Source of the DNA: Patescibacteria group bacterium | Lineage (GTDB): Bacteria; Patescibacteriota; Patescibacteriia; JAQUQO01 | DNA: 64,000 bases | Direction of reading: 5' to 3' | Assembly (NCBI GenBank): GCA_028716045.1 | Contig: JAQUQO010000001.1 | Span: 128,942 to 192,941 of the forward strand | Part shown: in pieces, positions 3,124-63,209 of the stretch | Numbering within the stretch: position 1 is the stretch's first letter | How the letters are laid out: each line of letters begins with the position of its first letter | The notes under the pieces: generated by a model | Seen by the model: the letters and a program-made list of their open reading frames with translations, nothing else | Database searches by the model: none | What the model was told of the DNA's origin: nothing | Made by a program: the position numbers and the translations under genes

Positions 3124-3219
3124 TCTCCCCCTTAGGATAAGGGGGAATAAAAGGGGGTTACGATTCCTTCTTGTTTCTTTCATAACCCCTCCCACCCTCC
3201 CCTTATCTTAAGGGGAGGA
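3124..3219. repeat. cluster of three GC-rich hairpins, CCCCTTA..TAAGGGG type
   Basis: ctccccctta-gga-taagggggaa. gggggtta-N22-taaccccc. ctcccctta-tct-taaggggag. The same hairpin style recurs at eight or more other intergenic sites. Confidence 0.6.
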
Positions 3220-3304
3220 GAAGAATCATAATCAAAACAAGGCCGGGAATGGTTTCTGGCTTGCAAAACATGGTAAGCTCTAAGTCCGCGCATAGGGTGC
3301 GGAT

Positions 3305-4033
3305 ATGGAGTACGCCGAGGAGGTAATAAAGATGAGTAAAAGAGGAAGTGAATTTTTGAAAGGTTTTGGGACAGGTTATGAAATTTTAAAGGTGATTATT
3401 AATGCGGTTTTAGACCGCGGCGGCACGGATGACAACCTGCGGTGTATTATTGCCGAAGGGTCAACTCTCCCGCACCAAATCGCCGAGCTTGTTCTCGGCA
3501 CTGGCAAACAGGAAGTCAAAGAGCAAGGAACTCCACCGCCCAAAAAGTTCTCTATTTGGAAAACCATTAACCTTGGCGTTGGCCCTCGGACTGCTACCGA
3601 GATTATTAAAGATTTTAATAAGATGAGTCCGCGTATGGAGATCAGCGGTTTAGCATCTGCTTTAATTGGTAATCCGTCAGAGTTTTTTGTGGCCTTTAAA
3701 GAGTTAGAAGTGAATCTTGTGATTGTCACTGTTAAAGAGCTTGGTTTTGAAGATGGAGTATGCTCCTATCAAGATATTTGTACTCGCGGTATAAAGATGG
3801 GGTTAACACTTTGCCCTCCAGAAGTAGGACCACAGCTCCGTCGGCAGTATTTTGGTCGGGGATTTCTTTGGATTGCCATGAACCCTATTACTGTCTTCGG
3901 AGGGGATAGTTATATATTTGTAGTCGGCACCAGGGGTGGCGAGCTAGATATTTCTACTTCCGATGCGATTTCTCATAAAAAAGAAAGCTGGGGCCCTAAT
4001 TGTCCATTTGTTTTTATTTGTCTCCAACCGTAG
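3305..4033 (+). CDS. hypothetical protein (start may be the internal ATG at 3332, which has GGAGG upstream)
   Basis: 242 aa ORF with no recognisable motif. An intrinsic terminator follows it. Confidence 0.45.
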   Translation: MEYAEEVIKMSKRGSEFLKGFGTGYEILKVIINAVLDRGGTDDNLRCIIAEGSTLPHQIAELVLGTGKQEVKEQGTPPPKKFSIWKTINLGVGPRTATEIIKDFNKMSPRMEISGLASALIGNPSEFFVAFKELEVNLVIVTVKELGFEDGVCSYQDICTRGIKMGLTLCPPEVGPQLRRQYFGRGFLWIAMNPITVFGGDSYIFVVGTRGGELDISTSDAISHKKESWGPNCPFVFICLQP

Positions 4034-4056
4034 TTACAGTTTATTATCAAACTCAA

Positions 4057-4097
4057 ACCCCTCCGACATTTTATCGGAGGGGTCTTTTATTTTTTTA
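4057..4097 (+). terminator. rho-independent terminator
   Basis: aacccctccga-cattttat-cggaggggt followed by a T-run. Confidence 0.55.
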
Positions 4098-4126
4098 TAT
4101 TGTTTTAATGTTTTTGTGTTCTCGTG

Positions 4127-4678
4127 TTAAAATGCCACTCGCGGCAATTCCTTTTCTCCCTCAGCCGCTTCAAAAAATTCTTTGGCTTTGAAGCCGAGCA
4201 TTCCTGCTACCATGTTGGCGGGAAATTTTTGCAGTTTGGTGTTAAAGATGCGGACGTTGTTGTTATAGAATCTTCGCGCTGCCTGGATTTTATCTTCAGC
4301 GTCAGTCAGTTCATCTTGTAAACGCATAAAATTATTTGAGGCCTTAAGGTCAGGATAGGCCTCGGCCACGGCAAATAAAGATTTTAAAGTGTTGGAAAGC
4401 ATGTTTTCCGCCTGGGCGTGTTCTTCCATGGTTTTGGCCCCCATAGCCGCGGCGCGGGCGGTAGTCACTTTTTCAAAAACCGAGGACTCGTGCTTAGCAT
4501 AGGCCTTCACAGTTTCCACTAAATTTGGAATCAGGTTATAACGCCTTTTCAGCTGGACATCAATGTCTGACCAGGCCTCATCAGCTTGATTGCGGCGGCT
4601 GATAAGCCCGTTGTAGGTAAAAATGAGCCAAACGATTATTAGAGCCAAAAGCCCTAAAAGCGCGTAAATAATTTCCAT
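4127..4678 (-). CDS. lemA: LemA family membrane protein
   Basis: 183 aa. N-terminal TM helix. The LemA signature region NGLISRRNQADEAWSDIDVQLKRRYNLIPNLVETVK. Confidence 0.8.
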   Translation of the reverse strand: MEIIYALLGLLALIIVWLIFTYNGLISRRNQADEAWSDIDVQLKRRYNLIPNLVETVKAYAKHESSVFEKVTTARAAAMGAKTMEEHAQAENMLSNTLKSLFAVAEAYPDLKASNNFMRLQDELTDAEDKIQAARRFYNNNVRIFNTKLQKFPANMVAGMLGFKAKEFFEAAEGEKELPRVAF

Positions 4679-4805
4679 AAATTTTCTTTTTTAACCCTCA
4701 ATTTGGGGGATTATTTATATTGATTAAATTAGCGATTTAATATAAAATAAAAATAAGCATTTCTTATTTAAATTATAAGTAAAAATCGGTTAAAAGTCAA
4801 TTTAT

Positions 4806-6158
4806 ATGAGTAAGATTAGCAAGGCCATTTTTAAGGCCTATGACATCAGGGGGATTTGCCCGACAGAAATCAATCCGGAAGTGGCTAAAAGGGTCGGCCA
4901 GGCCGTGGTGGAGTTTACCAAAGCCAAAATCGTGGTGGTGGGCAGGGACGCTCGGGAAAGCAGTGAAGAACTTAGCCGCGCTGTGGTTGAAGGCGTAATT
5001 TCTATGGGCGCGGACGTGGTGGATATCGGACTTTGTTCCACCCCGATTTTTAATTTTGCGGTAGCCGAGAACATCGATTTTGAGGCCGGAATTATGGTGA
5101 CAGCTTCGCACAATCCCGCAGAATACAATGGGTTTAAAATGGATTTTAATGATGGATTGCCTGTGAGTAGGGGCGCGGGGATGGAAGAAATTAAAAATTT
5201 GGTATCGGTCGGCAATTTTAAGGAAGCTCCTAAAAAGGGGGCGGTAAAGGAGCGGGATTATCTTTTGGAATATCTGGAGAGAGTTTTTACCTTAGTTGAT
5301 AAAAATGAAATAAAAAAATTAAAAGTAGTGGTTGATACAGGAAACGGCATGGGAGGTTTAACAATGTCAAAAGTTTTTGAAAGAATACCGCCGGAGCTCG
5401 TGCCTCTTTATTTTGAACTTGATGGCACTTTCCCTAATCACGAAGCCAATCCTTTGAAAGAGGAAAATTTAGTCGCTTTAAAAGAAAAAGTTTTAGCAGT
5501 TGGCGCTGATTTAGGAGTGGCTTTTGACGGCGATGCCGACCGGGTTGGTTTTATTGATGAAAAAGGAGAAACGATTTCCGGCGACCTTATCACCGCTCTT
5601 ATTGCCCAAGAATTACTAAGAATAAAGGGGAGCGGGAGAGTATTATATGATTTGCGTTCCAGTAATATTGTTTCCGAAGTAGTTAAAGCGGCGGGAGGAG
5701 AACCGGAGATGTGCGCCGTGGGGCATGCGACTATTAAAAAAATAATGGCAGAAAAAAAGGCGCTTTTTGCCGGCGAGCTTTCTTCTCATTTTTATTATCG
5801 CGATTTTTATAATGTGGAATCAGGGGACTTAACCCTACTTCTTGTTTTATCGCTTCTTTCGCGTTCCGGAGGAAAAATGTCAGCCCTGGCAGCCCCGCTT
5901 AAAAAGTATTTCCAGTCAGGAGAAATTAATTCCGAAGTGGAGAATAAAGAAGAGATAATGAAAAAATTGGAAGAAATTTACGGCCTAAAAGCAAAAAGTA
6001 TTTCCCATATTGACGGAATTAGGATTGATTTGGATGGCTGGTGGTTTAATGTCCGGCCCTCCAATACCGAACCGTTGCTACGCCTTAATTTAGAAGCGGA
6101 AACTAAGGAGATAATGGAAGAAAAAAGGGATGAAATCTTAAATGTCATAAAGGGGTAA
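4806..6158 (+). CDS. phosphoglucomutase/phosphomannomutase (alpha-D-phosphohexomutase family)
   Basis: 450 aa. Active-site TASHNPAEYNGFK. Mg-binding FDGDADR. Overall four-domain length. Confidence 0.85.
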   Translation: MSKISKAIFKAYDIRGICPTEINPEVAKRVGQAVVEFTKAKIVVVGRDARESSEELSRAVVEGVISMGADVVDIGLCSTPIFNFAVAENIDFEAGIMVTASHNPAEYNGFKMDFNDGLPVSRGAGMEEIKNLVSVGNFKEAPKKGAVKERDYLLEYLERVFTLVDKNEIKKLKVVVDTGNGMGGLTMSKVFERIPPELVPLYFELDGTFPNHEANPLKEENLVALKEKVLAVGADLGVAFDGDADRVGFIDEKGETISGDLITALIAQELLRIKGSGRVLYDLRSSNIVSEVVKAAGGEPEMCAVGHATIKKIMAEKKALFAGELSSHFYYRDFYNVESGDLTLLLVLSLLSRSGGKMSALAAPLKKYFQSGEINSEVENKEEIMKKLEEIYGLKAKSISHIDGIRIDLDGWWFNVRPSNTEPLLRLNLEAETKEIMEEKRDEILNVIKG

Positions 6159-6161
6159 TTT

Positions 6162-6950
6162 ATGGTCGGTATATTTGACTCTGGCATCGGCGGGCTTACA
6201 GTCGTCCGGGAACTGCAAAAAAAACTCCCCAAATACGATTTAATATATTTTGGCGATACAGCGCGCACTCCCTATGGCACCAAAAGTAAAGAAACCATTG
6301 TTAAATACGCTTTGGAGGATGCGCAAATTTTACTTAATAGGGGAGCGAAAGTGATAATTATTGCCTGTAATACTGCCTCGGCCGTGGCTTATGAGACCTT
6401 GAAAGAAAAATTCAAAGTACCGGTTTTTGAAGTGATTACGCCGGCAGTCAGGCGGGCCTTGGAATTAACGCAGAACAAGAGAATCGGCGTGATTGGCACG
6501 ACTGCCACTATCAATAGCAGTATTTACGAAAAGTTGCTTAAAGAGGGCAGAGAAAAAATAGAGGTTTTTTCCGCCGCTTGCCCGCTCCTTGTGCCTTTGG
6601 TTGAGGAAGGGTGGCTGGATACTCGCGAGACCAAAATGATAGTAAAAAAATATCTGCATCCTTTGCGGACGAAGAGCGTTGGTACCTTGATTCTGGGCTG
6701 TACGCATTACCCGTTGCTTAAAAAAATAATTCAGCCGCGGATTGGCAAGCGGGTTAATCTCGTGGATTCAGCCGAAGAGGTGGTTAAAGAATTCCAGCAA
6801 TTTTTAAAAGATAATCCTAAAATAGACGCTGAATTAAGTAAAACCAGCCAAGCGAAGTATTTAGCTTCAGATGTTTCGGCTCGTTTTCAAAATATCGCCG
6901 AAAAGTGGCTTAGTAAAAAAGTGGAGTTGGAGCGGGTTGATGTTCTTTGA
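6162..6950 (+). CDS. murI: glutamate racemase
   Basis: 262 aa. The motifs FDSGIGGLTV, IACNTAS and LGCTHYP are characteristic of MurI. Confidence 0.85.
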   Translation: MVGIFDSGIGGLTVVRELQKKLPKYDLIYFGDTARTPYGTKSKETIVKYALEDAQILLNRGAKVIIIACNTASAVAYETLKEKFKVPVFEVITPAVRRALELTQNKRIGVIGTTATINSSIYEKLLKEGREKIEVFSAACPLLVPLVEEGWLDTRETKMIVKKYLHPLRTKSVGTLILGCTHYPLLKKIIQPRIGKRVNLVDSAEEVVKEFQQFLKDNPKIDAELSKTSQAKYLASDVSARFQNIAEKWLSKKVELERVDVL

Positions 6951-7007
6951 TTAAAAAAGAAAAGCGCCCGATGAGTCGAGCGCTGGGAGATATTGAAAAA
7001 AAGAGTT

Positions 7008-7247
7008 TTACGAACGTTTGATGAAGTGGTGACTGTTGGCGGGATACTCCGTATCTTTTTCATATCCTTCATTCTTTAAGAACCATTCCATAATTTTCAA
7101 TGCTGCGTCGGCATCTTTCTCGTTAAAAAATATTTCCTCGACGGCATCCTCGCCATTACCCTCACCATTTTTATATACTTTAAACATCCATATTACTAAA
7201 AGGCCAATATCCATTTCGGAAATTACGAGATGTAACCTTTTTTCCAT
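7008..7247 (-). CDS. hypothetical small acidic protein
   Basis: 79 aa ORF directly downstream of a near-consensus promoter. Confidence 0.4.
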   Translation of the reverse strand: MEKRLHLVISEMDIGLLVIWMFKVYKNGEGNGEDAVEEIFFNEKDADAALKIMEWFLKNEGYEKDTEYPANSHHFIKRS

Positions 7248-7306
7248 TGTTTTTCCTCCTTTTTATGGTTTAAAAGTTAAATTTTATTATTCTAAATTAA
7301 TATAAT

Positions 7307-7335
7307 ATAATACCATATTTTAACAATTTTGTCAA
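7307..7335 (-). promoter_or_regulatory. sigma70 promoter, TTGACA-17-TATTAT. The -35 box and spacer are identical to the promoter at 20079-20107.
   Basis: Minus-strand read: cttgacaaaattgttaaaatatggtattat. It shares the 22-mer atattttaacaattttgtcaag with the locus at 20085. Confidence 0.55.
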
Positions 7336-7363
7336 GTAGAGACGCGATTAATCGCGTCTCTAC
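7336..7363. promoter_or_regulatory. perfect 28-bp palindrome directly abutting the -35 box
   Basis: gtagagacgcgattaatcgcgtctctac is its own reverse complement. It may be a regulator site or an insulator hairpin. Confidence 0.4.
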
Positions 7364-7381
7364 GCAAATTAAAATTTTTAC

Positions 7382-8491: not shown

Positions 8492-8555
8492 TTTTAGCCC
8501 CTTTCATTAGAGCGTTAAATTTGTTAAAATATTAGCGGTTAACTCCTATTACCTT

Positions 8556-9581: not shown

Positions 9582-9585
9582 TATT

Positions 9586-12138
9586 ATGAAAATATCATAT
9601 AACTGGCTCAAAGATTTTGTTGCCATCAAGGGTTCTCCCGAAGAAATTGGAAAAAAATTTACCGCCCATACGGTTGAAGTGGAGGGTATAGAAAATTTAC
9701 GCGAGAGTTTTAAAAATATCGTTGTCGGAAAAATTTTAGAAATCAGCAATCATCCCAATGCCGACAAGTTAAAGATTGTTAAAGTAGATATTGGTCAGAA
9801 AGATATTGAACTGGTTTGCGGCGGGACAAATTTAAAATTGGGTCAGCTCGTGGCCGTGGCTTTGCCGGGGGCGAAAGTCCGCTGGCACGGGGAGGGCGAT
9901 TTGGTCGAGCTTCAACCGGCTAAGGTGCGCGGGGTGGAGAGTGCAGGCATGATTTGCGGCGCGAGCGAAATAGGTCTGGAAAAAATTTATCCCCATGACG
10001 ACCATGAGATTTTGGATTTAAGTGATTTGAAATTAAAAATTGGAGAAAATTTAGCAACGGCGCTTGGTTATGACGATGTCATTTATGATATTGATAATAA
10101 ATCATTAACTAATCGTCCGGACCTTTTTGGGCATTATGGGCTGGCTCGCGAAGTGGCGGCTTTTACCGGCGGTCAGTTTAAAGGATACAAAGTTCCGCCA
10201 ATCAAGCCGGGCGGGTCCCTTAATTTAGAAGCCAGGGTTGAAGAGCCAAAACTTTGCCCGCGTTATATGGCCGTCGCGATGGAAAATATAAAAATCGGAC
10301 CTTCTCCGGAATGGTTGAGTAAACGTCTTTCGGCCTGCGGTTTTCGTCCCGTCAACAATATCGTCGATATAACTAATTATGTTCTTTTGGAATTGGGTCA
10401 GCCGATGCACGCGTTTGATACCCGCCGTCTTAATTTAAGATTTAAAAATCAATCCTTCGACAGGCTCAGGATTGACTCTGAGCCTATCAACTCGCTTCGC
10501 TCGCTCGGGGCGAATGCTGAGCCTGTCGAAGCAGAGCAAAGCCGAATGGGTCAAAAGTCAACATCAATCGTAGTTCGTCGGGCCAAAGCCGGGGAGATGT
10601 TTGTCACTTTAGACGGCGCCAGCCGCGGTTTGGATAGCTCCATGCTTGTTATTACTGACGAAGAGCACCCGGTAGCGCTAGCGGGGATTATGGGCGGCGA
10701 AGAGAGCGAAATTAAAGAAGAGACGACATCAATCATTTTTGAGTCAGCTTCTTTTGACGCGGCCAATATCCGCCAAACTTCAAGCAAGCTCGGATTGCGC
10801 ACGGAGTCCTCCATGCGCTTTGAAAAATCATTGGACCCGAATTTAGCGGAAGTCGCTTTGGCGCGCGCTGTGGAGCTTGTCAAAAAATTAATACCCGGAG
10901 CGCGTGAGGCCAGTAAAGTAGCAGATATTAGAAAGTTTAAATTAAATCAAGGGCCGATTAAGACCGATATTGATTTTTTCCAAGAACAAATCGGGGAGAG
11001 TATCAAACCGCCGGTTATCGTTAAAATCTTAAAAGATTTGGGTTTTGGAGTGAAAATTTCCGGTAAAAAATTGTCGGTCAGAATTCCTTCTTGGCGGGCC
11101 GCTAAGGACGTTTCAATACCCGAAGATTTAGTGGAAGAAGTTATACGGATTTATGGTTTTGATAATATCAAAGGAGAAATGCCGTCGGTGATGCTGGAAG
11201 TTCCGGAAGTAAACAAAGAGAGGGAAGGGGAAAGAAAAATAAAGACGATTTTATCTTTGGGAGAAGGGATGGATGAAGTTTATAATTATTCTTTTTTAAG
11301 CGAGAAAGATTTACAAAAAAGCGGATTTTCCTCTGCCTCGGCTATCGGGCTAGCCAACTCTTTATCCGAAGAATTAAATGTTTTGCGTCCAAGTTTAATC
11401 CCGGGATTACTAAAAAATGCGGTGGAGAATTTAAAATATTTTGATCATTTTGGTATTTTTGAGTTCGGCAGAATTTTTGAGCCGCCCGACGGAGAATTTT
11501 TAGTCGGCGGAGAAAACCGAGCATTTTTGCCCCGCGAACCATATCATGTGGCGGGATTAATGGTCGGCGAAGAGAAAGATTTTTTCTTTAAAATTAAAAA
11601 GGTAGTGGAGAATTTATTCTCTGAATTGGGTGTTGCCGCGGAATTCGCTAAAGCGGGGGACATTGCCGTTTTTGCTCATCCGGCGCGTTTCGCTGAAATT
11701 ATAATTAACGGTAAAATTGTCGGGGCGCTCGGCGAGATAAATCCGTTGACGGCCAATAATTTTGACATTAAAAAGAAAATAGCTTTTTTTGAAATTGATC
11801 TATCCTTTGTCCTGGCCGCTGGCCGAGGAAAGAAAAAGTATTCCCCGTTGCTGAAATATCCGGAGATTAAGAGAGATTTAGCCATAGTCGTTAGCGAGAG
11901 TGTGGCGTGGGGAGAAGTGGCCAAGGCCATATTTGACCTTGATAAACACATTATTAAAGATGTGCTATTATTCGACGTATATCGCGGGGAAAATTTAGGC
12001 GCGGGCAAGAAGAGCTTAGCTTTTCATATCGTTTACCGCGCGGACGATCGCACGCTTGAAACCAAAGAAGTTGAGGAAGTCCAAAAACAGATTATCAAAA
12101 AGCTGGAAGAAAAATTCAGCGCGGAAACTAGAAAATAA
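9586..12138 (+). CDS. pheT: phenylalanine--tRNA ligase beta subunit. It carries an in-frame ~40 aa insertion encoded by a GC-rich palindromic element.
   Basis: 850 aa. tRNA-binding N-terminus, B3/4 domain (HAFD...IVVRRAKAGE), B5 and FDX-ACB domains. It immediately follows pheS. Confidence 0.9.
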   Translation: MKISYNWLKDFVAIKGSPEEIGKKFTAHTVEVEGIENLRESFKNIVVGKILEISNHPNADKLKIVKVDIGQKDIELVCGGTNLKLGQLVAVALPGAKVRWHGEGDLVELQPAKVRGVESAGMICGASEIGLEKIYPHDDHEILDLSDLKLKIGENLATALGYDDVIYDIDNKSLTNRPDLFGHYGLAREVAAFTGGQFKGYKVPPIKPGGSLNLEARVEEPKLCPRYMAVAMENIKIGPSPEWLSKRLSACGFRPVNNIVDITNYVLLELGQPMHAFDTRRLNLRFKNQSFDRLRIDSEPINSLRSLGANAEPVEAEQSRMGQKSTSIVVRRAKAGEMFVTLDGASRGLDSSMLVITDEEHPVALAGIMGGEESEIKEETTSIIFESASFDAANIRQTSSKLGLRTESSMRFEKSLDPNLAEVALARAVELVKKLIPGAREASKVADIRKFKLNQGPIKTDIDFFQEQIGESIKPPVIVKILKDLGFGVKISGKKLSVRIPSWRAAKDVSIPEDLVEEVIRIYGFDNIKGEMPSVMLEVPEVNKEREGERKIKTILSLGEGMDEVYNYSFLSEKDLQKSGFSSASAIGLANSLSEELNVLRPSLIPGLLKNAVENLKYFDHFGIFEFGRIFEPPDGEFLVGGENRAFLPREPYHVAGLMVGEEKDFFFKIKKVVENLFSELGVAAEFAKAGDIAVFAHPARFAEIIINGKIVGALGEINPLTANNFDIKKKIAFFEIDLSFVLAAGRGKKKYSPLLKYPEIKRDLAIVVSESVAWGEVAKAIFDLDKHIIKDVLLFDVYRGENLGAGKKSLAFHIVYRADDRTLETKEVEEVQKQIIKKLEEKFSAETRK
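10455..10531. repeat. GC-rich inverted-repeat element lying in-frame inside pheT
   Basis: Perfect 15-bp arms: cttcgacaggctcag at 10455-10469 and ctgagcctgtcgaag at 10517-10531. Local GC is far above the rest of the gene. It falls between the conserved HAFD and IVVRRAKAGE blocks, where homologs have about 5 residues. Confidence 0.5.
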
Positions 12139-20107: not shown

Positions 20108-20133
20108 GACCCGTCAGTCGCGACTGACGGGTC
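20108..20133. promoter_or_regulatory. perfect 26-bp palindrome GACCCGTCAGTCGCGACTGACGGGTC abutting the -35 box. Member of a three-copy family.
   Basis: It is its own reverse complement. The variant at 51730-51755 (gacccgtcggtcgcgaccgacgggtc) differs only at symmetric positions, i.e. compensatory changes. A degenerate copy sits at 52168-52193. Confidence 0.5.
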
Positions 20134-24275: not shown

Positions 24276-24518
24276 AATCCCCTCCATTTTACGGAGGGGA
24301 ATGGGAATTCGCGGGAATTAATTTTAGATATTTTCCCCCTTTGAAAAAGGGGGAAGTAAAGGGGGATTTAAAAATCTTAAATCCCTCCCCCCAATCTCGA
24401 GTACTCGAGATTGGGGTACTCCCCTTATTAAGGGGAGAGAAATATTTTTTATAAAGTCGGGAGATTGGCTGAGAATTTAACCTATAAAAAAAATCTCCCC
24501 GCTCGGGGGAGATTTTTC
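24276..24518. repeat. cluster of six GC-rich hairpins (CCCC..GGGG family)
   Basis: cccctcc-atttta-cggagggg. ttccccctt-tgaaa-aagggggaa. gggatttaa-aaatc-ttaaatccc. ccccaatctcgag-tac-tcgagattgggg. ctcccctta-t-taaggggag. aaatctcccc-gctc-ggggagattt. The 89-aa minus ORF overlapping this region is probably spurious. Confidence 0.6.
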
Positions 24519-35257: not shown

Positions 35258-35340
35258 GTCGTTGTAGCTCAAAGGCAGAGCACCCCGACAGCGCTAATGC
35301 TTAAACGGGGAGGTCGGGGGTTCAAGTCCCTCCAACGACC
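35258..35340 (+). tRNA. tRNA gene (83 nt, CCA not encoded) with a non-canonical 18-nt anticodon loop, consistent with an 11-nt insertion or intron. Anticodon undetermined.
   Basis: Acceptor gtcgttg/caacgac. U8, A14, GG18-19, A21. D-arm gctc/gagc. Anticodon stem ccccg/cgggg enclosing acagcgctaatgcttaaa. Variable loop aggtc. T-arm ggggg-ttcaagt-ccctc. Discriminator C. An intrinsic terminator follows. Confidence 0.6.
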
Positions 35341-37045: not shown

Positions 37046-37068
37046 GGTTCAATCTTGCAGATTGAACC
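37046..37068. repeat. REP-like hairpin (copy 1): ggttcaatct-tgc-agattgaacc
   Basis: 10-bp stem with a 3-nt loop, directly 3' of the RAYT gene. Near-identical copies at 37605 and 38483. Confidence 0.65.
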
Positions 37069-37073
37069 TTTTC

Positions 37074-37574
37074 TTAATTTCTCTTATCCGCCAATTCCAG
37101 CAAATTTTCCGGATTAGCCGAAGACCAAATCCAATCTTCGGGACGTTTGACGTATTGTTTTCTGACCGGGTTTTGTTCTATATAATTTACTTTCTGCAGA
37201 TAGAATTTTTCGTTTTCAATAAGTTCCGGCCAATTTTTCGGTTGCCAGAATTGATAAGTATCATTTTCTTTAAAAAGTTCAAGGACGCGAGGCTCGGTTT
37301 CTGATAGATTCTTCTTTAATTCTTTTGAAGTAAAAGTTTTAAAATCTCTTGTAAAACCCGCAAGATCACTATTCTCAGCTATAAGATGGATGTGATTAAG
37401 CATGAAGACCCAGGCGTATATTTTTAAACTTTTATTATTCTGGCAGTATTGCAGAGAATTAAGCAGGATATTCCAGCGGTCATATCTGTCAAAAAGGTAG
37501 TACCAACGTTTAACTGTAAAAGTTAGAAAATGTATTTTGTTTTTTAATTCTTTGCTGATGCGAGGCGATGGCAT
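37074..37574 (-). mobile_element. REP-associated tyrosine transposase (RAYT / IS200-IS605 TnpA-like HUH endonuclease)
   Basis: 166 aa. HUH motif in FMLNHIHLIAE. Conserved C-terminal Tyr region. Flanked on both sides by REP hairpins. Confidence 0.7.
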
Positions 37575-37604: not shown

Positions 37605-37678
37605 GGTTCAATCTGTAAGATTGAACCAACGGAAGGCTCTGCAAGAGCCGTAACTAGATATACGCTGTTATGTGCTGT
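37605..37678. repeat. REP copy 2 (ggttcaatct-gta-agattgaacc) followed by a second hairpin module, ggctctgcaagagcc-gtaacYagatatacgcYgttat
   Basis: The module at 37633-37678 recurs at 54995-55040 with about 90% identity. Confidence 0.6.
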
Positions 37679-37735
37679 AGTGAAAAGCAATAGCCGTCCC
37701 GAAGGGCGGCTATTATATTTTTGGTAATTTACTTT

Positions 37736-38482: not shown

Positions 38483-38505
38483 GGTTCAATCTTGCAGATT
38501 AAACC
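38483..38505. repeat. REP copy 3: ggttcaatct-tgc-agattaaacc
   Basis: Same orientation and flank (ttt(c/t)c) as copy 1. Lies 8 nt from the gyrB stop. Confidence 0.6.
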
Positions 38506-40737: not shown

Positions 40738-40806
40738 GCCCTCCCACCACCCTGTCCCTATCCCAAGTCCTCGGGACGGGACGCCCCTCCTCAGGCAGGA
40801 GGGGAA
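40738..40806. repeat. ~65-bp GC-rich two-hairpin element (direct-repeat copy A)
   Basis: caccaccctgtccctatcccaagtcctcgggacgggacgcccctcctcaggcaggagggg. About 85% identical to 42417-42480, in the same orientation. Confidence 0.6.
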
Positions 40807-42416: not shown

Positions 42417-42480
42417 CACCACCCCGTCCCGATACCGAGTCCTCGGGACGGGACGCCCTTCCTCAACAAGGAAGGGAATG
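42417..42480. repeat. ~65-bp GC-rich two-hairpin element (direct-repeat copy B)
   Basis: caccaccccgtcccgataccgagtcctcgggacgggacgcccttcctcaacaaggaaggg. Confidence 0.6.
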
Positions 42481-50751: not shown

Positions 50752-50878
50752 GGGGGTTGGTCTTAAATCCCTCCCCCCTCCGGGGTACTCCCTTTGAGAA
50801 AGGGAGATAGAATGTCCTCCTCCTTTGTAAAAGGAGGTGCCCTGTCCTGAGCTTGTCGAAGGGGCGGGGTGGAGGATT
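50752..50878. repeat. ~130-bp modular GC-hairpin repeat, copy E (direct orientation), upstream flank of the DUF559 gene
   Basis: ttggtcttaaatccct...tttgagaaagggagata...cctcctttgtaaaaggagg...gtcgaaggggcggggtggaggatt. Shares its ends and 3' module with the copy at 59190-59326 (inverted), and its 5' end with the copy at 51237-51325. Confidence 0.65.
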
Positions 50879-51235
50879 TTAGCCCTCTTCTGTTTCCCGC
50901 ATTATTTTTCCAATCACACCCTCCATATTGTAAAAAATATCCAAGTTAGTAAATCGCAGAATTTTTAAGCCGGACTGTTTTAGATATTTTTCTCTCTCGG
51001 CATCTTTGATGATATTATCTTTGTCAAAATGTTGTCCCCCGTCAATTTCTATAATCAGTTTCTTTGTCGGGCAGTAAAAATCCACGATGTATTTTCCAAG
51101 GGGCTTTTGTCTGTAAAATTGTAAACCGTTTATTTGTTTATTTTTGATTTTACTCCACAAAATTATTTCCGTTTTAGTCATGTTGCCTCGCAGGGCCTTA
51201 GATGCGTTTTTAAGTTTAGGGCTATAATAGCGCAT
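50879..51235 (-). CDS. DUF559 / Vsr-like endonuclease-domain protein
   Basis: 118 aa. Conserved DUF559 core (LRGNMTKTEIILWSKIKNKQINGLQFYRQKPLGKYIVDFYCP...IEIDGGQH). Confidence 0.7.
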   Translation of the reverse strand: MRYYSPKLKNASKALRGNMTKTEIILWSKIKNKQINGLQFYRQKPLGKYIVDFYCPTKKLIIEIDGGQHFDKDNIIKDAEREKYLKQSGLKILRFTNLDIFYNMEGVIGKIMRETEEG

Positions 51236-51236: not shown

Positions 51237-51325
51237 GGGTTGGTCTTAAATCCTCCCCTGCCTACCGGACTTCGGTGAGCTCAGTCGAACCGCAGACAGG
51301 CTTTTGAGAAAGGGAGAGGGGATTT
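51237..51325. repeat. modular repeat copy G (direct orientation), other flank of the DUF559 gene
   Basis: ttggtcttaaatcctcccctgcct...caggcttttgagaaagggagaggggattt. Terminal inverted similarity: taaatcctcccct versus agaggggattta. Confidence 0.6.
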
Positions 51326-51729: not shown

Positions 51730-51755
51730 GCAAGACCCGTCGGTCGCGACCGACG
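51730..51755. promoter_or_regulatory. perfect 26-bp palindrome GACCCGTCGGTCGCGACCGACGGGTC (family copy 2), in the rpmE upstream region
   Basis: It is its own reverse complement. It sits between an rpmE-proximal ttgcca -35 box and a plus-strand TTGACC. Confidence 0.45.
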
Positions 51756-51840
51756 GGTCAGGGGCTTGACCTTTAATTAAATACATGTTAAGGTTAAAAG
51801 CGATGAGGATTTTACTTGTAGTACATTTCAAAATTTTAAA

Positions 51841-52113: not shown

Positions 52114-52207
52114 CTAACCATATTTAAGCCGAAAGACAATTATGTCAAGTAGGCTTTTTTTGTCAAGACAAGCCAGTCGCGACCGACGGGTCTTGACAAG
52201 CCGAGGG

Positions 52208-54971: not shown

Positions 54972-55040
54972 CCCCGCTAAGCGGGGTATGGGTGGAGGCT
55001 CTGCAAGAGCCGTAACCAGATATACGCCGTTATATGATGT
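54972..55040. repeat. hairpin ccccgctaagcgggg plus the second copy of the ggctctgcaagagcc-gtaaccagatatacgccgttat module
   Basis: 54995-55040 matches 37633-37678. The ccccgc..gcgggg hairpin matches 49418-49433. Confidence 0.55.
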
Positions 55041-55070
55041 ATGTTTTTCTTTTTCGGCCCGTTAGGGTTT

Positions 55071-55103
55071 GTTTTTGTATAACAAACGAATTCGATTTTT
55101 CAA
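55071..55103. repeat. left 33-bp terminal inverted repeat (TIR-L) of a ~2.1 kb cassette
   Basis: tttttgtataacaaacgaattcgatttttcaat matches the reverse complement of 57116-57148 at 32 of 33 positions. Contains the palindromic core cgaattcg. Confidence 0.7.
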
Positions 55104-55164
55104 TTTTAGCGAAGGGGCAGAGGGGATAGGGGTGAATGCCCCATAGCTAAATTTGTTGATTAGT

Positions 55165-56962: not shown

Positions 56963-56999
56963 AGATTTTAAGTTTTAGTTACTTATTATTAATAATCTT

Positions 57000-57055: not shown

Positions 57056-57115
57056 GTAGTATTTAAAAAATGTCTGCCAATATTTTATTGGTAGACATTT
57101 TTATCCCCCTATTAA

Positions 57116-57148
57116 ATTGAAAAATCGAATTCGTTTGTTATATAAAAA
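57116..57148. repeat. right 33-bp terminal inverted repeat (TIR-R)
   Basis: attgaaaaatcgaattcgtttgttatataaaaa. Its reverse complement equals 55071-55103 with one mismatch. Confidence 0.7.
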
Positions 57149-57349
57149 TGTCGCCGTCTGGCGAAAAGGAAAAGTATATTTCATATAACTACCTATATCC
57201 CAACTTGTTGTTTTTTGCGCTAAGATATGATAAAATTTTTAGTAAATTGAGGTTATACCCCCAAGGGGTATAACCTCCCGTATTTTATTTACAGTAATAC
57301 TTTCACGAACATATTTATTTTATCCCATTCACCTCAAAAATTCAACCCA

Positions 57350-57378
57350 TTGCCAAGATTTTTGCCCTATGTTATAAT
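57350..57378 (+). promoter_or_regulatory. sigma70 promoter, TTGCCA-17-TATAAT, for rpsB-tsf. Followed by a ~120-nt leader with hairpin atcccga-gca-ttcgggat.
   Basis: ttgcca at 57350-57355. tataat at 57373-57378. Leader hairpin at 57443-57460. Confidence 0.5.
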
Positions 57379-57502
57379 CGGTATTACTTATTAAATCTCT
57401 CACATTTTAGGATTATTTGGCGGCCTTGTCTCATCCCGAGCATTCGGGATTGGGATTTGCCAAATAAGATGACTAAAATGGAGGCCTAAAAGGAAAAAAT
57501 TT

Positions 57503-58237: not shown

Positions 58238-58326
58238 CAGGGGTTCTCCCCTGACAAGGGGAGTTAGAGGGGTTTAAAACCGTAGAAAAAGCGTAACCCC
58301 CCCTTCCCCCCTTATCAGGGGGCTGA
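58238..58326. repeat. GC-rich hairpin cluster between rpsB and tsf
   Basis: agggg-ttct-cccct. ctcccct-gaca-aggggag. cccccc-ttatca-gggggg. Confidence 0.5.
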
Positions 58327-58357
58327 ATAGTTATCAATTACTAATAGTTATATTTAT

Positions 58358-59173: not shown

Positions 59174-59189
59174 AAAAGCATAAAGGTTT

Positions 59190-59326
59190 AAAATCCTCCG
59201 CCCCGCCCCTTCGACAAGCTTAGGACAGGGCACCTCCTTTTACAAAGGAGGAGGACATTCTTATCTCCCTTTCTCAAAAGCCTGCCTGCCGGCAGGCAGG
59301 GGAGGTAAAGAGGGATTTAAGACCAA
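59190..59326. repeat. modular ~135-bp repeat, copy F, inverted relative to the copies flanking the DUF559 gene
   Basis: Its reverse complement matches copy E (50752-50878) along ttggtcttaaatccct and ttgagaaagggagataagaatgtcctcctcctttgtaaaaggaggtgccctgtcct-agcttgtcgaaggggcgggg-ggaggatt. Its central module is cccctgcctgccggcaggcagg, as in copy G. Confidence 0.65.
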
Positions 59327-59356
59327 TTTCTCACTCCTAAATTAAAATTTATTTTT

Positions 59357-60193
59357 ATGCGCGTGCTCAAGGTACAATTCACCCATTGGCATAAAGTTTA
59401 TTATTTTACGACCGACGATGAAACTCTCAATGTCGGCGATTATGTTATTGTGGAAACGGAACTGGGAATGGAACTGGGGAAAGTAGATGGTTTCACTACC
59501 ATGGAAAGAGTAAAGGAGCTCTTGAAAGAGCCGTCGGAAGAAGAGAAACAGGCCGGTTCGCCGGAGGAAATCAAGCCGATTGTCCGCCGCGCCACTTCCG
59601 GAGATTTGGACAAAGCGCGGGAGAACGAGTCGCGTCATGACGAAGCCATGGAGGTTTGTCGTCAGCTCATCAAAAAACACAGTTTGCCGATGAAACTCGT
59701 GGACGTTCATTTTTCTTATGACGGCGGGCGGATAACTTTCGCTTTTATCGCCGACGGGCGCATTGATTTCAGAAATTTAGTCAAAGATTTAACTCGCCGT
59801 TTTCAGAAATCCATCCGGATGCACCAAATCGGCGTGCGCGATGAAGCCAAAATATCCGGCGATGTCGGCCCTTGCGGCCGGACGCTTTGCTGTAAAAAAA
59901 TTCTTAGAGAAAATTACGGCGGCGTTAATACGGAAATGGCTTATGAACAACAGGTGGCGCATCGCGGGCTGGAAAGATTATCCGGGCAATGTGGGCGACT
60001 GAAATGCTGTTTGCGCTACGAATTGCCGATTTACGAGGAATTAAAAAAGAAATTGCCGGCTATTGATAGCACCGTCAAGACATCCAAAGGCAAGGGCAAG
60101 GTGATTGGCCATGAGATTTTAAAGCAAGCGGTAAAAGTTCAGTTGGACGAGGATACGATTATAACAGTGCCGGCGAACGAGATAAAAAAATAG
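59357..60193 (+). CDS. PSP1 C-terminal domain protein (RicT/YaaT-like)
   Basis: 278 aa. N-terminal VKVQFTHWHKVYYFTTDDETLNVGDYVIVETELG. C-terminal Cys-rich CGRTLCCKK...CGRLKCCL, as in RicT. Confidence 0.6.
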   Translation: MRVLKVQFTHWHKVYYFTTDDETLNVGDYVIVETELGMELGKVDGFTTMERVKELLKEPSEEEKQAGSPEEIKPIVRRATSGDLDKARENESRHDEAMEVCRQLIKKHSLPMKLVDVHFSYDGGRITFAFIADGRIDFRNLVKDLTRRFQKSIRMHQIGVRDEAKISGDVGPCGRTLCCKKILRENYGGVNTEMAYEQQVAHRGLERLSGQCGRLKCCLRYELPIYEELKKKLPAIDSTVKTSKGKGKVIGHEILKQAVKVQLDEDTIITVPANEIKK

Positions 60194-60225
60194 ATTTATT
60201 GATATAGCGGTATAGTAAATACAAT

Positions 60226-60254
60226 TTGACTTGACTGGCAATTTGAGTTATATT
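60226..60254 (+). promoter_or_regulatory. sigma70 promoter, TTGACT-17-TATATT
   Basis: ttgact at 60226-60231. tatatt at 60249-60254. Confidence 0.5.
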
Positions 60255-60297
60255 GAAGACATATGGATTGTTTCTTGATAATAAATGATTTTTTAAT

Positions 60298-60630
60298 TTG
60301 GGAAAATTTTTAAAGATAGAGAAGGAGGGAGTAGTAATGGATGAGTTAGAATTCAAAAAAATACTTGAATCCATGCAAAAGGAGCAACGCGAGAGGTTTG
60401 AAAAAATTGAATCCGCACTGACGGCGCGAAACAAAAGGTTTGAGAGGATTGAAGCCGTTTTAGATGCCCAAAACGTCAAACTTAGGGAAGTTGAATTACG
60501 TTTAAGTGAGCATGATTTCGTTTTTGAGCTTGGAGGAGGCGCGGCAAACTTAAAAATTCCCGTCCGGAAAAAGATGATACTCCACCGCACTATTGATGAC
60601 ACAGAAATTGTTCAAGATTACGATGCTTAA
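60298..60630 (+). CDS. hypothetical coiled-coil protein
   Basis: 110 aa. SD gaaggagggagtagtaATG. Terminator at 60653-60686 (aaaccgc-ttataaatatgg-gcggtttt followed by T-run). Confidence 0.4.
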   Translation: MGKFLKIEKEGVVMDELEFKKILESMQKEQRERFEKIESALTARNKRFERIEAVLDAQNVKLREVELRLSEHDFVFELGGGAANLKIPVRKKMILHRTIDDTEIVQDYDA

Positions 60631-60720
60631 TTTTTAACCATTTGTTCTTTCAAAACCGCTTATAAATATGGGCGGTTTTTTATTTTAACGCAGTTTAAAA
60701 TTGAACCAATCATTATTTTT

Positions 60721-60806
60721 TCCCTCCTTAGACAAGGAGGGGAAGGGGGTGGTTGGATTTTAAAATAACAAACTCCCTCTTCGCTCCCCCTTAGCTAAGG
60801 GGGAGA
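60721..60806. repeat. GC-rich hairpin pair upstream of gap
   Basis: ccctcctt-agac-aaggaggg. ctccccctta-gc-taagggggag. Confidence 0.5.
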
Positions 60807-60916
60807 ATTTTTATTATTATCCAATTTTCTCTCTTCTTTATTGGTGTTTGGAGTTTGGTTATTTTCTCTAAAATTTGCTATAATAAATATAAGTTAAAAA
60901 CTAATCACAATATCTT

Positions 60917-61930
60917 ATGTCTAAAAAAATACGCGTGGCTATCAATGGCTTTGGCCGTATTGGCCGCACTACTTTTAAAGCCGGATTTGGCAAAGAGGGG
61001 ATTGAGTGGGTAGCGGTTAATGATTTGACCGATGCTAAAACCTTGGCTTATCTTTTAAAGTATGATTCAGTTTATCATGAGTATCACCGTAAGGTTAGAG
61101 CTACCAAAAACGAGATTATTGTTGATGGCCAGAGAATCAAAGTTTTTGCCGAACGCGACCCCAAGAATTTGCCGTGGAAAGAATTGAACATTGATGTGGT
61201 TTTGGAATGCACCGGCATTTTTACTAATGAAGAAGGAGCCAGCCAACATCTCACCGCCGGCGCCAAGAGAGTGATTATTTCCGCTCCGGCCAAAGGCGGC
61301 CATGTGCCGACTTATGTTTTGGGAGTGAACAGCCATAAATACAAGAAAAGCGAAAAGGTGATAAACAATGCTTCTTGCACCACCAATTGTATTGCTCCGG
61401 TGGCGGCGATTATCCAAAGCCATTTTGGAATTAAAAAAGCGTTGATGACCACCATTCACGCCTATACCGCCGACCAAAATTTAGTGGACGGGCCGCACAA
61501 GGATTTGCGCCGCGCCCGCTCGGCCGCCATCAATATTATTCCCACCACTACCGGCGCTGCCATTTCTACCGGCGAAATTATTCCGGCTATCAGGGGCAAA
61601 TTTGACGGCCTCGCTATCCGCGTGCCAGTGGCCGTGGGTTCGCTGTCTGATTTCACTTTTTTGACAAAAAAGAAGACGACCGTGGAGAGAGTAAATAACA
61701 TTTTTAGAAAGATGGCCAAGCACCCGTTTTACAAAAATATACTCGCGGTCACCGACAGGCCGATTGTTTCATCTGATATTATCGGCAATGAATATTCGGC
61801 TGTTGTTGATTTATCTTTAACAAAAGTGGTTGATGGCGATTTGGTAAAAGTCATCGCTTGGTATGATAATGAATTAGGTTATTCGCACCGCTTGGCGGAA
61901 TTGGCAAGGGAAGTCGGCAGAAAAATTTAA
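60917..61930 (+). CDS. gap: glyceraldehyde-3-phosphate dehydrogenase (type I)
   Basis: 337 aa. NAD-binding INGFGRIGR. Active site ASCTTNCIAP. Confidence 0.9.
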   Translation: MSKKIRVAINGFGRIGRTTFKAGFGKEGIEWVAVNDLTDAKTLAYLLKYDSVYHEYHRKVRATKNEIIVDGQRIKVFAERDPKNLPWKELNIDVVLECTGIFTNEEGASQHLTAGAKRVIISAPAKGGHVPTYVLGVNSHKYKKSEKVINNASCTTNCIAPVAAIIQSHFGIKKALMTTIHAYTADQNLVDGPHKDLRRARSAAINIIPTTTGAAISTGEIIPAIRGKFDGLAIRVPVAVGSLSDFTFLTKKKTTVERVNNIFRKMAKHPFYKNILAVTDRPIVSSDIIGNEYSAVVDLSLTKVVDGDLVKVIAWYDNELGYSHRLAELAREVGRKI

Positions 61931-61942
61931 TAACATTTAAAT

Positions 61943-63130
61943 ATGCGTTCCATAAAAAACCTTCAGGATTTATCCGGTCAGCGAGTTTTATTGCGGGTGG
62001 ATTTTAACGCGCCGCTGGCCAAAGATAATAAGGGTAAAATTATTGTTGCCGATGACAGTAAAATAAAAGCGTCTTTGCCGACCATTGAGTTTTTATTAAA
62101 ACAAGGCGCGAAAATTATTTTACTATCTCATCTCGGCCGTCCCGAAGGAAAGTTTGCGAAGGGGTTAAGAATGGCGCCGGCAGTAGAGAGTTTGAAGCGG
62201 CTTTTGCCAAAAGATAAGAAGAAAATCGGTTATATGGAGAGCTGGAATTTTTCCGCCGTCAGAAAAGTCGTTGATTTGATGGGTAAGGGCGAAATTTTGT
62301 TTTTAGAAAATTTACGTTTTCATCCGGGGGAGGATAAAAATGGCGTCCAATTCGCGCGCTCTTTATCGGGTTTAGGCAGATTGTATATAGATGACGCTTT
62401 TGGCGTTTCCCACCGCGCCGAGGCGTCCACGGTGGCTATTACCAAGTATCTGCCGAGCTACGCCGGATTTTTAATGGAGAAAGAAGTGGAGGCGTTGAAC
62501 CGCGTAGTGAAAAATCCTCGTCGTCCCCTGCTGGTAATGATGGGCGGCGCGAAGGTTTCCACGAAAATCGGCATGATAAAATTTTTATTATCCAAAGCCG
62601 ATTATATTTTACTCGGTGGGGGCTTAGCCAACACTTTTTTAAAAGCCAAGGGATATGAAGTCGGGAAATCTTTAGTAGAACCAGAGGGCGTCAGATTGGC
62701 TAAAAAGTTTTTGGCCAATAGAAAAATAGTTTTGCCGGTTGATGTGGTAGTGGCTAAAAATAAGAACGGCAAGCCAATTGTCCGCCAGATAAAAGCCGTT
62801 AAGGAAAACGAAATGATTTTAGATATCGGTCCGGAGACCATTAAGCTTTTTGCTAAGTTAATTCGTAAAGCCAACACGCTTGTCTGGAATGGTCCCATGG
62901 GGTTTTACGAGAATAAAACATACAGCCACGGCAGTATCGCCTTGGGCCGGTTGGTGGCCGCGCGTTCATCGGGTCGGGCTTTTGGCGTAGTCGGCGGGGG
63001 AGAGACATTGGACGTTTTAGCCGCGACCAAGATGGCTAAATACATTGACCACGTTTCCACCGGCGGGGGAGCGATGCTGGAATTCTTGGAAGGAAAAAAA
63101 TTACCAGGGATTAAAGCGTTGGGTTTTTAA
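61943..63130 (+). CDS. pgk: phosphoglycerate kinase
   Basis: 395 aa. Conserved Pgk N- and C-domains (RVDFNAP, GGGA...L). Confidence 0.9.
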   Translation: MRSIKNLQDLSGQRVLLRVDFNAPLAKDNKGKIIVADDSKIKASLPTIEFLLKQGAKIILLSHLGRPEGKFAKGLRMAPAVESLKRLLPKDKKKIGYMESWNFSAVRKVVDLMGKGEILFLENLRFHPGEDKNGVQFARSLSGLGRLYIDDAFGVSHRAEASTVAITKYLPSYAGFLMEKEVEALNRVVKNPRRPLLVMMGGAKVSTKIGMIKFLLSKADYILLGGGLANTFLKAKGYEVGKSLVEPEGVRLAKKFLANRKIVLPVDVVVAKNKNGKPIVRQIKAVKENEMILDIGPETIKLFAKLIRKANTLVWNGPMGFYENKTYSHGSIALGRLVAARSSGRAFGVVGGGETLDVLAATKMAKYIDHVSTGGGAMLEFLEGKKLPGIKALGF

Positions 63131-63135
63131 TTTTA

Positions 63136-63209
63136 TCCCCCTGATAAGAGGGACTATGGGGGTTTGAGAATTGATTAACCCCCCCCAACCCCCCTTGTCA
63201 GGGGGGGGT
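63136..63209. repeat. GC-rich hairpin pair after pgk
   Basis: ccccct-gataagag-gg.. and ccccccttgtcagggggggg, the same family as the cluster at 58238. Confidence 0.45.

Follow-up and report, generated by a model that had tools for sequence, protein, structure and literature searches.

This work concerns a 64,000-nucleotide stretch of DNA from a Patescibacteria group bacterium (contig JAQUQO010000001.1, positions 128,942 to 192,941; here termed the window), the clusters of short GC-rich hairpins that are scattered through its intergenic regions, and a gene of the DUF559 family that is enclosed by a pair of these elements. Gene calls and Pfam matches covered 73 kb of the source genome, namely, the 64-kb window and about 9 kb past its right end. 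Genes in the window have a GC content of 43%, and intergenic DNA has one of 35%. The DUF559 gene (positions 50879 to 51235, minus strand), with hairpin-containing modules on both sides, was predicted to encode a Vsr-like PD-(D/E)xK endonuclease of 118 amino acids (PF04480, E = 4e-34), and in the family alignment this protein retains every family-invariant residue; its conserved acidic and histidine residues are E23, D52, E63, D65, and H69. Structures matched by the family profile were PDB 3HRL (E = 7e-29) and, as a weak hit, that of the homing endonuclease I-Bth0305I (3R3P, E = 0.0018).

Hairpin clusters in the window

The original prediction, made from the DNA letters alone, had described ten clusters of GC-rich C/G-run hairpins dispersed between genes, and all ten were found where it had placed them. 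Perfect hairpins, in which the 5' arm is made of pyrimidines and the 3' arm of purines (CCCCTT..AAGGGG), with a stem of at least 7 bp and a loop of 2 to 9 nt, occurred 12 times in 9.6 kb of intergenic DNA and not once in 63 kb of coding DNA; 200 dinucleotide shuffles gave a mean of 0.16. Short-loop hairpins of the reverse type (GGGG..CCCC) did not occur in the same scan, and this 12:0 asymmetry argues for a shared sequence and not for selection of structure alone. Runs of CCCCC are about 8 times denser in intergenic than in genic DNA, and a comparison set of 80 tsf loci of other bacteria (1.3 Mb) contained only 8 such hairpins.

The clusters lie between divergent genes (3124, 40738), between convergent genes (42417), and between tandem pairs, and many of them begin 0 to 6 nt past a stop codon within apparent operons (rpsB-tsf-PSP1-gap-pgk). 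Their 5' flanks are rich in T and their 3' flanks in A, which is the opposite order from that of a terminator; T-tracts are mostly missing, and a terminator scan gave a clear flag at 60784 to 60805 only. The earlier statement that the hairpins often lack U-tracts and that simple terminators are insufficient to explain them is thus borne out. Two further hairpins within or close to the predicted spans (24494 to 24513 and 4057 to 4083) are of the ordinary terminator-like kind with A/T tracts and lie outside the repeat system. Several clusters are copies of one another: positions 50793 to 50878 and 59192 to 59278 are 97% identical over 87 nt, 40745 to 40806 and 42417 to 42478 are 85% identical, and 3121 to 3157 and 24329 to 24365 are 84% identical. 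A search of the window with Rfam at gathering thresholds returned nothing but a tRNA.

Each module couples a hairpin to a mirror-image arm

The repeating unit, module M, is about 33 nt long and consists of a pyrimidine arm, a loop of 2 to 5 nt, a complementary purine arm, a spacer of 2 to 5 nt, and a second purine arm. This second purine arm, referred to below as the third arm, is the mirror image (the reverse, not the complement) of the 3' arm of the hairpin and usually ends in ATT(T). The consensus of the window modules is CCCCCTTT-N3-AAAGGGGG-TT-(G)AGGGGGATTT, which can also be written as CCCCCTT(T/A)..AAGGGGG..GGGGG(A)TT. The third purine segment, the layout of modules as inverted pairs, and the DUF559 gene inside one of these pairs had all been overlooked in the original prediction. 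Mirror symmetry of a purine tract beside a complementary pyrimidine tract is a requirement for an intrastrand purine-motif triple helix, and a single strand with the symmetry of module M is predicted to be able to fold back twice into a triplex of this type (C-G.G, T-A.A, and T-A.T).

The mirror rule was assessed on 160 unique modules beside DUF559 genes elsewhere, 60 of which were informative in that their purine core is asymmetric. Among these, the third arm was better described as a mirror in 42 cases and as a direct copy in 2, and in a permutation test the observed mirror fit was 0.832 versus 0.706 ± 0.009, about 14 standard deviations above random pairing. At least 8 distinct core types covary with the third arm; for example, hairpin purine arms GAGGGG, GGGAGAG, GGAGGG, GGGAGG, and GGGGGAGG are accompanied by third arms GGGGAG, GAGAGGG, GGGAGG, GGAGGG, and GGAGGGGG, respectively. 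The third base facing an A of the purine arm was A in 287, T in 290, G in 54, and C in 4 instances, so that A or T accounts for 91%. Of 21 loci, 10 have left and right third arms that are unlike each other but match the mirror of their own hairpins, which places the constraint within the module and not in pairing between the two ends. A "middle hairpin" formed by a G-arm and a C-arm was considered as the key structure and was demoted, since each arm follows the mirror of its own hairpin and not the partner arm.

In the window, the informative modules at 3184 (minus), 58246 (plus), and 50765 (minus) obey the mirror rule, and those at 24278 (plus) and 60771 (minus) show an imperfect mirror. An ITxF-like scan (stem of at least 8, at most one mismatch) identified 7 motifs with 8 to 11 triads in the window versus 0.01 in shuffles; elsewhere, the scan returned 6 motifs in control loci totalling 1.38 Mb and 240 in DUF559 loci totalling 190 kb. 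Judged by their base order, the window modules classify as intrastrand-triplex motifs (ITxF class II, purine motif), as do the BoxC/PIT/TM repeats, and the clusters can accordingly be described as predicted triplex-type modules of the BoxC/PIT/TM kind that form a new sequence subfamily in a Patescibacteria host.

Arrangement of the modules

Five clusters (3124, 24330, 58238, 60721, and 63136) follow one plan, which consists of a C-to-G hairpin, a G-run with TT, a short loop, AA with a C-run, and a second C-to-G hairpin. In the terms used above, these pairs, A1 to A5, are inward inverted arrangements M(+)..M(-) with a gap of 7 to 25 nt across which the third arms face each other. They measure 70 to 100 bp and are devoid of coding capacity. 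The two halves of a pair repeat one another in inverted form down to the loops, so that RNA prediction folds three of the five clusters into one long hairpin each. Being noncoding, shorter than 300 bp, and bounded by terminal inverted repeats, pairs A1 to A5 have the defining structure of miniature inverted-repeat transposable elements (MITEs).

The modules were also recovered with a covariance model, R1, that was derived from 104 modules of foreign DUF559 loci only and run on the window with filters off. Its full-length hits at E < 0.05 comprised ten sites inside the predicted clusters (3126+/3184-, 24334+, 58246+/58295-, 60722+/60771-, 63136+/63177-, and 59268+) and one site in coding DNA (11842 to 11878) that is likely due to chance. 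The left half of A1 (3125 to 3159, plus strand) reads CTCCCCCTT-AGGAT-AAGGGGGAA-TAA-AAGGGGGTT, with 9 triads and an R1 score of 23.2 bits (E = 5e-5), and in its right half (3184 to 3219, minus strand; 10 triads, 19.4 bits) the third arm GGGAGGGG mirrors GGGGAGG(G). The left half of A2 (24333 to 24369, plus strand) is a canonical module, TTCCCCCTTT-GAA-AAAGGGGGAA-GT(A)-AAGGGGGATTT, with 11 triads and the best R1 hit (35.6 bits, E = 7e-9). The right half of A2 (24378 to 24437, minus strand) is composed of the C-arm TTAAATCCCTCCCC, a 28-nt perfect palindrome (24389 to 24416) in the spacer, and the hairpin CTCCCCTT-ATT-AAGGGGAG, and it has TCTTAAATCCCTCCCCCC..GGGGTACTCCC in common with positions 50761 to 50800; the two surrounding segments, 24364 to 24440 and 50752 to 50810, differ by a 20-nt palindrome in place of TCC. 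A degenerate solo module (24278 to 24309, plus strand), TCCCCTCC-ATTTTAC-GGAGGGGA-AT-GGGAATT, lies nearby, with a weak R1 score of 7.9 bits and a partly kept mirror.

In A3, the left half (58246 to 58274, plus strand; 18.3 bits) lies directly past the rpsB stop codon, was also detected by the triplex scan, and has a third arm GAGGGG that mirrors GGGGAG, and the right half (58295 to 58322, minus strand) scores 23.4 bits (E = 5e-5). The left half of A4 (60721 to 60754, plus strand) has 9 triads and scores 14.2 bits; the right half (60771 to 60805, minus strand), found by R1 and by the triplex scan, contains the only hairpin with a terminator-like T tail. The left half of A5 (63136 to 63164, plus strand; 15.5 bits) begins 6 nt past the pgk stop codon, and the right half (63177 to 63207, minus strand; 26.4 bits, E = 5e-6) was likewise found by the triplex scan.

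A second type of cluster (50752, 51237, and 59190) and a third type (40745 and 42417) are made of the same pieces with nested GC palindromes, and back-to-back module pairs are also present. Element B1 (50752 to 50878, unstranded) combines M(-) at 50765 to 50806 with M(+) at 50817 to 50878, the latter with a hairpin nested in the spacer and a third arm, TGGAGGATTT, that abuts the stop codon of the DUF559 gene. B3 (51237 to 51325, minus strand) is the module upstream of this gene; it has a GC palindrome nested in a hairpin arm, and its third arm, GGGGAGGATTT, stops 12 nt short of the ATG. B2 (59190 to 59326, minus strand), located between tsf and PSP1, is an open reading frame (ORF)-less back-to-back pair of the B1 type and contains the 97% identical copy of 50793 to 50878. 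R1 gave hits at 59233 and 59268 in B2 and weak hits in B3, and hairpin-only hits were present in the B elements as well. The type C element at 40738 to 40806 (minus strand) combines the hairpin CCCCTCCT-CAGGC-AGGAGGGG with a degenerate third arm, and another hairpin is nested in the spacer; the second copy of the element, the 85% identical one, is at 42417 to 42480 (minus strand).

Most of the DUF559 loci have flanking modules of fixed polarity

Elements 50752 to 50878 and 51237 to 51325 abut the stop and start codons of the window DUF559 gene, and the same bracketing architecture was observed for two DUF559 homologues (66 to 67% identity) on unrelated metagenome contigs. A metagenome scan with the DUF559 alignment yielded 80 loci with 42 to 60% identity to the window protein, on contigs with a GC content of 32 to 64%, and 72 of them entered the flank counts. 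The flanks of these foreign genes are remarkably alike: the upstream flank contains the hairpin CCCCCCTTT-NNN-AAAGGGGGG, a spacer of 2 to 3 nt, GAGGGGGGATTT, a few bases, and the ATG, and the downstream flank continues after the stop codon with AAATC(T)CCCC and, past a spacer, another hairpin.

In 64 of the 72 loci, such a hairpin was located no more than 70 nt from a border of the DUF559 ORF. A hairpin together with a G-arm was found upstream of DUF559 in 45/72 loci compared to 1/1303 control ORFs, and a module at either border, in the same polarity, in 52/72 loci compared again to 1/1303. The polarity is strict, with 42 loci having M(+) and 1 having M(-) upstream of the gene, and 31 having M(-) and 5 having M(+) downstream of it. 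The junctions are tight: the median separation of module and gene is 8 nt at the ATG and 2.5 nt at the stop codon. The gaps of inward pairs in these loci are bimodal: 10 pairs have gaps of 6 to 30 nt, and 34 of the 35 long gaps, of about 340 to 390 nt, correspond to the DUF559 ORF. Inward pairs of these loci are nearly all either empty or occupied by DUF559, and window pairs A1 to A5 fall in the short class. DUF559, and not the RAYT transposase that is also encoded in the window, is the protein associated with the modules. No description of an association between DUF559 and triplex repeats was found in the searchable literature (DUF559, YcjD, COG2852, and motif strings). No DUF559 paralogue from the source genome was present among the best 120 matches, and no paralogy was found among three 97-amino-acid ORFs.

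Cluster turnover at orthologous sites

Contigs L088, L089, and L090 encode homologues of elongation factor Ts (EF-Ts) with 65 to 70% identity and have kept the gene order prfA-rpmE-..-rpsB-tsf-PSP1-gap-pgk. In L089, there is a C/G-run cluster at each of the sites prfA/rpmE, rpsB/tsf, and PSP1/gap, with a sequence unlike that of the window. L088 has none at prfA/rpmE or rpsB/tsf and one at PSP1/gap, and L090, on which prfA/rpmE is not part of the contig, has none at rpsB/tsf or PSP1/gap. The prfA/rpmE site was hence encountered in three states, namely, empty in L088, with an ORF-less cluster in L089, and with modules plus the DUF559 gene in the window. Relatives at 55% EF-Ts identity have no clusters at rpsB/tsf, at tsf/PSP1, or after PSP1. 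The differing states at orthologous sites indicate that clusters are gained, lost, and remodelled quickly. Three Logan contigs (L003, L005, and L007) are 100% identical to the window and consequently uninformative as a strain comparison.

Other features of this gene neighbourhood were noticed as well. A conserved palindromic element of about 150 nt is located upstream of tsf in L088 (3139 to 3290), L089 (3651 to 3806), and L090 (1024 to 1171); it is missing from the window, where a pair of triplex modules is found instead. A conserved rpsB 5' leader (ctcacattttaggattatttggc ... aaataagatgactaaaatggagg) is present in the window (57388 to 57484) and in L088 (2197 to 2274), L089 (2583 to 2657), and L090 (57 to 96); it has no Rfam hit and is likely an S2 autoregulatory leader. 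Between rpmE and rpsB, a 35-nt inverted repeat (97%; 55072 to 55106 and 57114 to 57148) encloses roughly 2 kb with small, functionally uncharacterised ORFs, a region that the relatives do not possess.

The ycjD gene and triplex motifs of E. coli

Repeats of the BoxC type have been known from E. coli since the 1990s, and Hoyne et al. are said to have named the same repeats PIT elements in 2000 (J Mol Biol 302:797). To our knowledge, the two dedicated studies of triplex-type repeats found neither a function nor a mobility gene nor a pattern of neighbouring genes. The TMECO consensus is CCCTCNCCC-N3-6-GGGNGAGGG-N3-GGGNGAGGG; it matches E. coli loci, which were the only loci scanned with this pattern. 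By comparison of the consensus sequences, the window modules appear to fall outside the TMECO subfamily, and, on visual inspection, one flank of the foreign DUF559 locus L172 is similar to the TMECO consensus. Holder et al. (2015; NAR 43:10126, PMC4666352), who introduced the names TM and TMECO, reported 23 copies in strain MG1655, always in intergenic positions, with five TMs as inward inverted pairs, and observed triplex folding of the E. coli motif in vitro. According to the same study, PIT elements have neither promoter nor terminator activity, and the repeats are abundant in enterobacteria and cyanobacteria, at loci that vary unusually between strains; DUF559 or any other endonuclease is not mentioned.

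The reference protein of the DUF559 family is E. coli YcjD (NF007294). In MG1655, a TMECO/BoxC motif shares the strand of ycjD and lies 168 nt downstream of it, gene and motif together occupying positions 1351205 to 1351760 (L175, 7206 to 7761) at the sapF-fabI site. The stop codon of ycjD is overlapped by a degenerate CCCTCTCCC..GAGGGGG, and the gene's 3' end is partly duplicated. With 23 motifs in 4.6 Mb, the chance of such proximity is roughly estimated at 0.4%. Among 5426 complete E. coli genomes, 3378 (62%) contain the gene, and genomes devoid of it carry the eefRABCD operon at the same site (PMC12817139), so that there is no clean empty allele for an empty-site test in this species. The E. 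coli arrangement is suggestive but departs from the canonical one.

The RAYT gene and further features

The RAYT gene at 37074 to 37574 is genuine (NF047646, 97.7 bits at a cut-off of 80). It is flanked, in the classical manner, by hairpins of its own, GGTTCAATCT-NNN-AGATTGAACC, at 37046 to 37068, 37605 to 37627, and 38483 to 38505, which are unrelated to the C/G-run modules, and these modules carry no GTAG/CGTC tag. The original prediction had interpreted the clusters as a dispersed system resembling MITEs or repetitive extragenic palindromes (REPs) and had proposed them as possible substrates of this RAYT. The view of a dispersed, MITE-like intergenic system distinct from terminators can be retained, and the link to the RAYT finds no support.

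A hairpin similar to the one flanking the RAYT gene occurs in the relative L088 (10696 to 10717). A 46-nt repeat (91% identity; 37634 to 37679 and 54996 to 55041), one copy of which lies beside the RAYT gene, begins with the hairpin GGCTCTGCAAGAGCC, after which comes GTAAC. A GTAG-tagged 28-bp palindrome, GTAGAGACGCGATTAATCGCGTCTCTAC (7336 to 7363), is 96% conserved in L088 (10402 to 10426), a relative at 65% EF-Ts identity. Three promoter regions (20108 to 20133, 51734 to 51759, and 52158 to 52200) contain the perfect 26-bp palindrome GACCCGTCAGTCGCGACTGACGGGTC beside TTGACA-like -35 boxes, and this palindrome looks like the operator of a regulator. A tRNA of 83 nt at 35258 to 35340 (Rfam, 51.5 bits), missed by ARAGORN, has an over-long anticodon region and is possibly intron bearing or otherwise atypical. 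Past the right end of the window, a 23S_rRNA_IVP (four-helix-bundle) gene at 64079 to 64435 (L001, 12137 to 12493) is flanked by inverted repeats of its own, gactaccgactacagc and gctgtagtcagtaagc, and resembles a further small cassette of the selfish type whose ends differ.

Origin and spread of the modules

As the same type of inward pair encloses the DUF559 gene, the clusters are best read as ORF-less forms, either MITE-like derivatives or empty target sites, of a selfish DNA element that has triplex-module ends and a single gene for a DUF559 nuclease related to Vsr and restriction endonucleases. The probability of this interpretation is estimated at roughly 70%. DUF559 would then be a possible mobilising gene for a class of triplex repeats of unexplained origin. 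As a putative dimeric, restriction endonuclease-like enzyme, DUF559 would recognise either the palindromic junction of the third arms (GGGGGATTT..AAATCCCCC) or the folded module, and would cut at or near it; break repair in a homing-like manner, or transposition, might subsequently copy the cassette or its ends. The relevant folded form would be single-stranded DNA and not RNA. Purine-motif triplexes do not form in RNA (literature relayed in PMC4666352), which favours a role at the DNA level. More tentatively, and with chances that we consider slightly below even, BoxC/PIT/TM repeats in general may be the terminal repeats of a selfish element spread over many phyla, their ORF-less copies being homing sites or MITE derivatives and the junction or the folded triplex being recognised by a DUF559 protein of about 118 amino acids.

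A number of observations weigh against a selfish element mobilised by DUF559. About 20 of the 72 DUF559 loci have no module according to the strict detector. Furthermore, the loci were chosen by protein and not by repeat, which limits the single-cargo pattern to a set selected for DUF559. The source genome contains one DUF559 gene only in the 73 kb, E. coli ycjD lies outside any canonical module pair, and no consistent target-site duplication was found at the ends of the window elements. The assignment of types B and C to the module family is partly based on architecture, in the case of type C on architecture only. At its median distance of 8 nt before the ATG, the third arm occupies the Shine-Dalgarno position, and part of the conservation on the ORF side could be translational. 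In E. coli, dimethyl sulfate footprinting revealed no stable triplex in vivo, and no link of the motifs to mobile elements or to functions of flanking genes was found (Holder et al. 2015, PMC4666352).

The main rival explanation is that the modules are host or neutral hotspots of non-B DNA that spread and decay by replication stalling and recombination, and that DUF559 merely accumulates there, or is retained as a toxic gene by insulating flanks, with no action on the modules. The variable loci around the E. coli TMs, described as a "source of genomic instability" by Holder et al. (PMC4666352), the same variability at the orthologous sites of the window, and the excess of modules over DUF559 in the window (about 20 versus 1 gene) fit this explanation. 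It leaves unexplained, however, the strict polarity of 42:1 upstream and 31:5 downstream, the tight and constant junctions with medians of 8 and 2.5 nt, and the fact that the cargo of nearly all long pairs belongs to a single gene family on contigs of 32 to 64% GC, and we regard it as unlikely. Still less probable is a role as intercistronic RNA stem-loops that stabilise or insulate mRNA in the manner of REP or ERIC sequences, with selection on structure and no mobility. The positions of many modules 0 to 6 nt past stop codons in the apparent operon rpsB-tsf-PSP1-gap-pgk and the very stable predicted RNA folds (z down to -6.7) would suit such a role, but a plain RNA hairpin has no use for a mirror-image third arm, the corresponding triplex does not form in RNA (literature cited in PMC4666352), clusters are also found between divergent genes (3124, 40738), the 12 short-loop hairpins all have one polarity, and relatives do without clusters at the same sites. 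The reported lack of terminator and promoter activity of PIT elements (PMC4666352) points in the same direction.

That the modules are REPs or REPINs mobilised by the RAYT at 37074 to 37574 is highly improbable. There is a genuine RAYT gene in the window, and the clusters, in alternating orientation, are similar to bacterial interspersed mosaic elements (BIMEs), but this RAYT has unrelated flanking hairpins of its own, the C/G modules are without the GTAG/CGTC tag, and the same modules accompany DUF559 genes in dozens of contigs. Hardly any credence is given to the modules being intrinsic terminators or the stem-loop guide arrays of TIGR-Tas systems, even though the hairpins are GC rich, follow genes, and belong to a phylum in which TIGR systems occur (PMC12045711). 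The missing T-tracts, the reversed flank polarity, and the two clusters between divergent genes speak against terminators. As for TIGR arrays, the precomputed Pfam lists, which covered the genes called in the window and its flanks, include no match to a Nop-domain Tas protein, spacer pairs of 8 to 12 nt with box C/D motifs are missing, loop lengths are insufficient, and the clusters are scattered and do not form an array beside a tas gene.

Enterobacteria and cyanobacteria carry between tens and hundreds of copies of triplex-type repeats, which mark unstable loci. A polar, tight, and phylogenetically broad tie to one nuclease family represents a testable candidate for their origin and spread. 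In turn, a candidate substrate is gained for the large DUF559 family, whose function is unknown and to which E. coli YcjD belongs. If a selfish DUF559 element is indeed the source of the clusters, the streamlined genomes of Patescibacteria carry triplex-type selfish DNA, and genome annotation would gain an explanation for common GC-rich intergenic hairpin clusters that are easily taken for terminators or REPs.

Comparison with known systems

Several known systems share some of the properties described here. REPs and BIMEs with their RAYTs are likewise short intergenic palindromes that form mosaic clusters of alternating orientation, whereas the window modules lack the GTAG/CGTC tag, possess an additional mirror arm, and differ from the repeats that flank the window RAYT. 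Genes for homing endonucleases of the I-Bth0305I family resemble the DUF559 cassette in that a small nuclease ORF is present or absent at a defined, partly palindromic site, and the two nucleases have a related fold (3R3P, E = 0.0018); in contrast, no intron or intein is involved here, the "target" is a multicopy repeat, and nuclease activity and homing are predictions. Closer in organization are MITEs such as Correia/NEMIS, ERIC, and RUP, which measure 70 to 140 bp, have terminal inverted repeats, are intergenic, fold into long hairpins, occur as nested or mosaic copies, are present or absent in relatives, and have a longer ORF-bearing relative. The window elements differ from them in that no target-site duplication is definable, the ORF encodes a PD-(D/E)xK nuclease and no recognised transposase, and the ends are of the triplex type. 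The BoxC/PIT/TMECO repeats have the same three blocks on one strand (pyrimidine arm, complementary purine arm, and mirror purine arm), with stems of 8 to 11 nt and short loops. They are also strictly intergenic in either orientation, are often arranged as inward pairs about 16 nt apart, and occupy variable loci. From these repeats, the modules of the window are set apart by their sequence subfamily, by their Patescibacteria host, and by the pairs that they form around a DUF559 gene.

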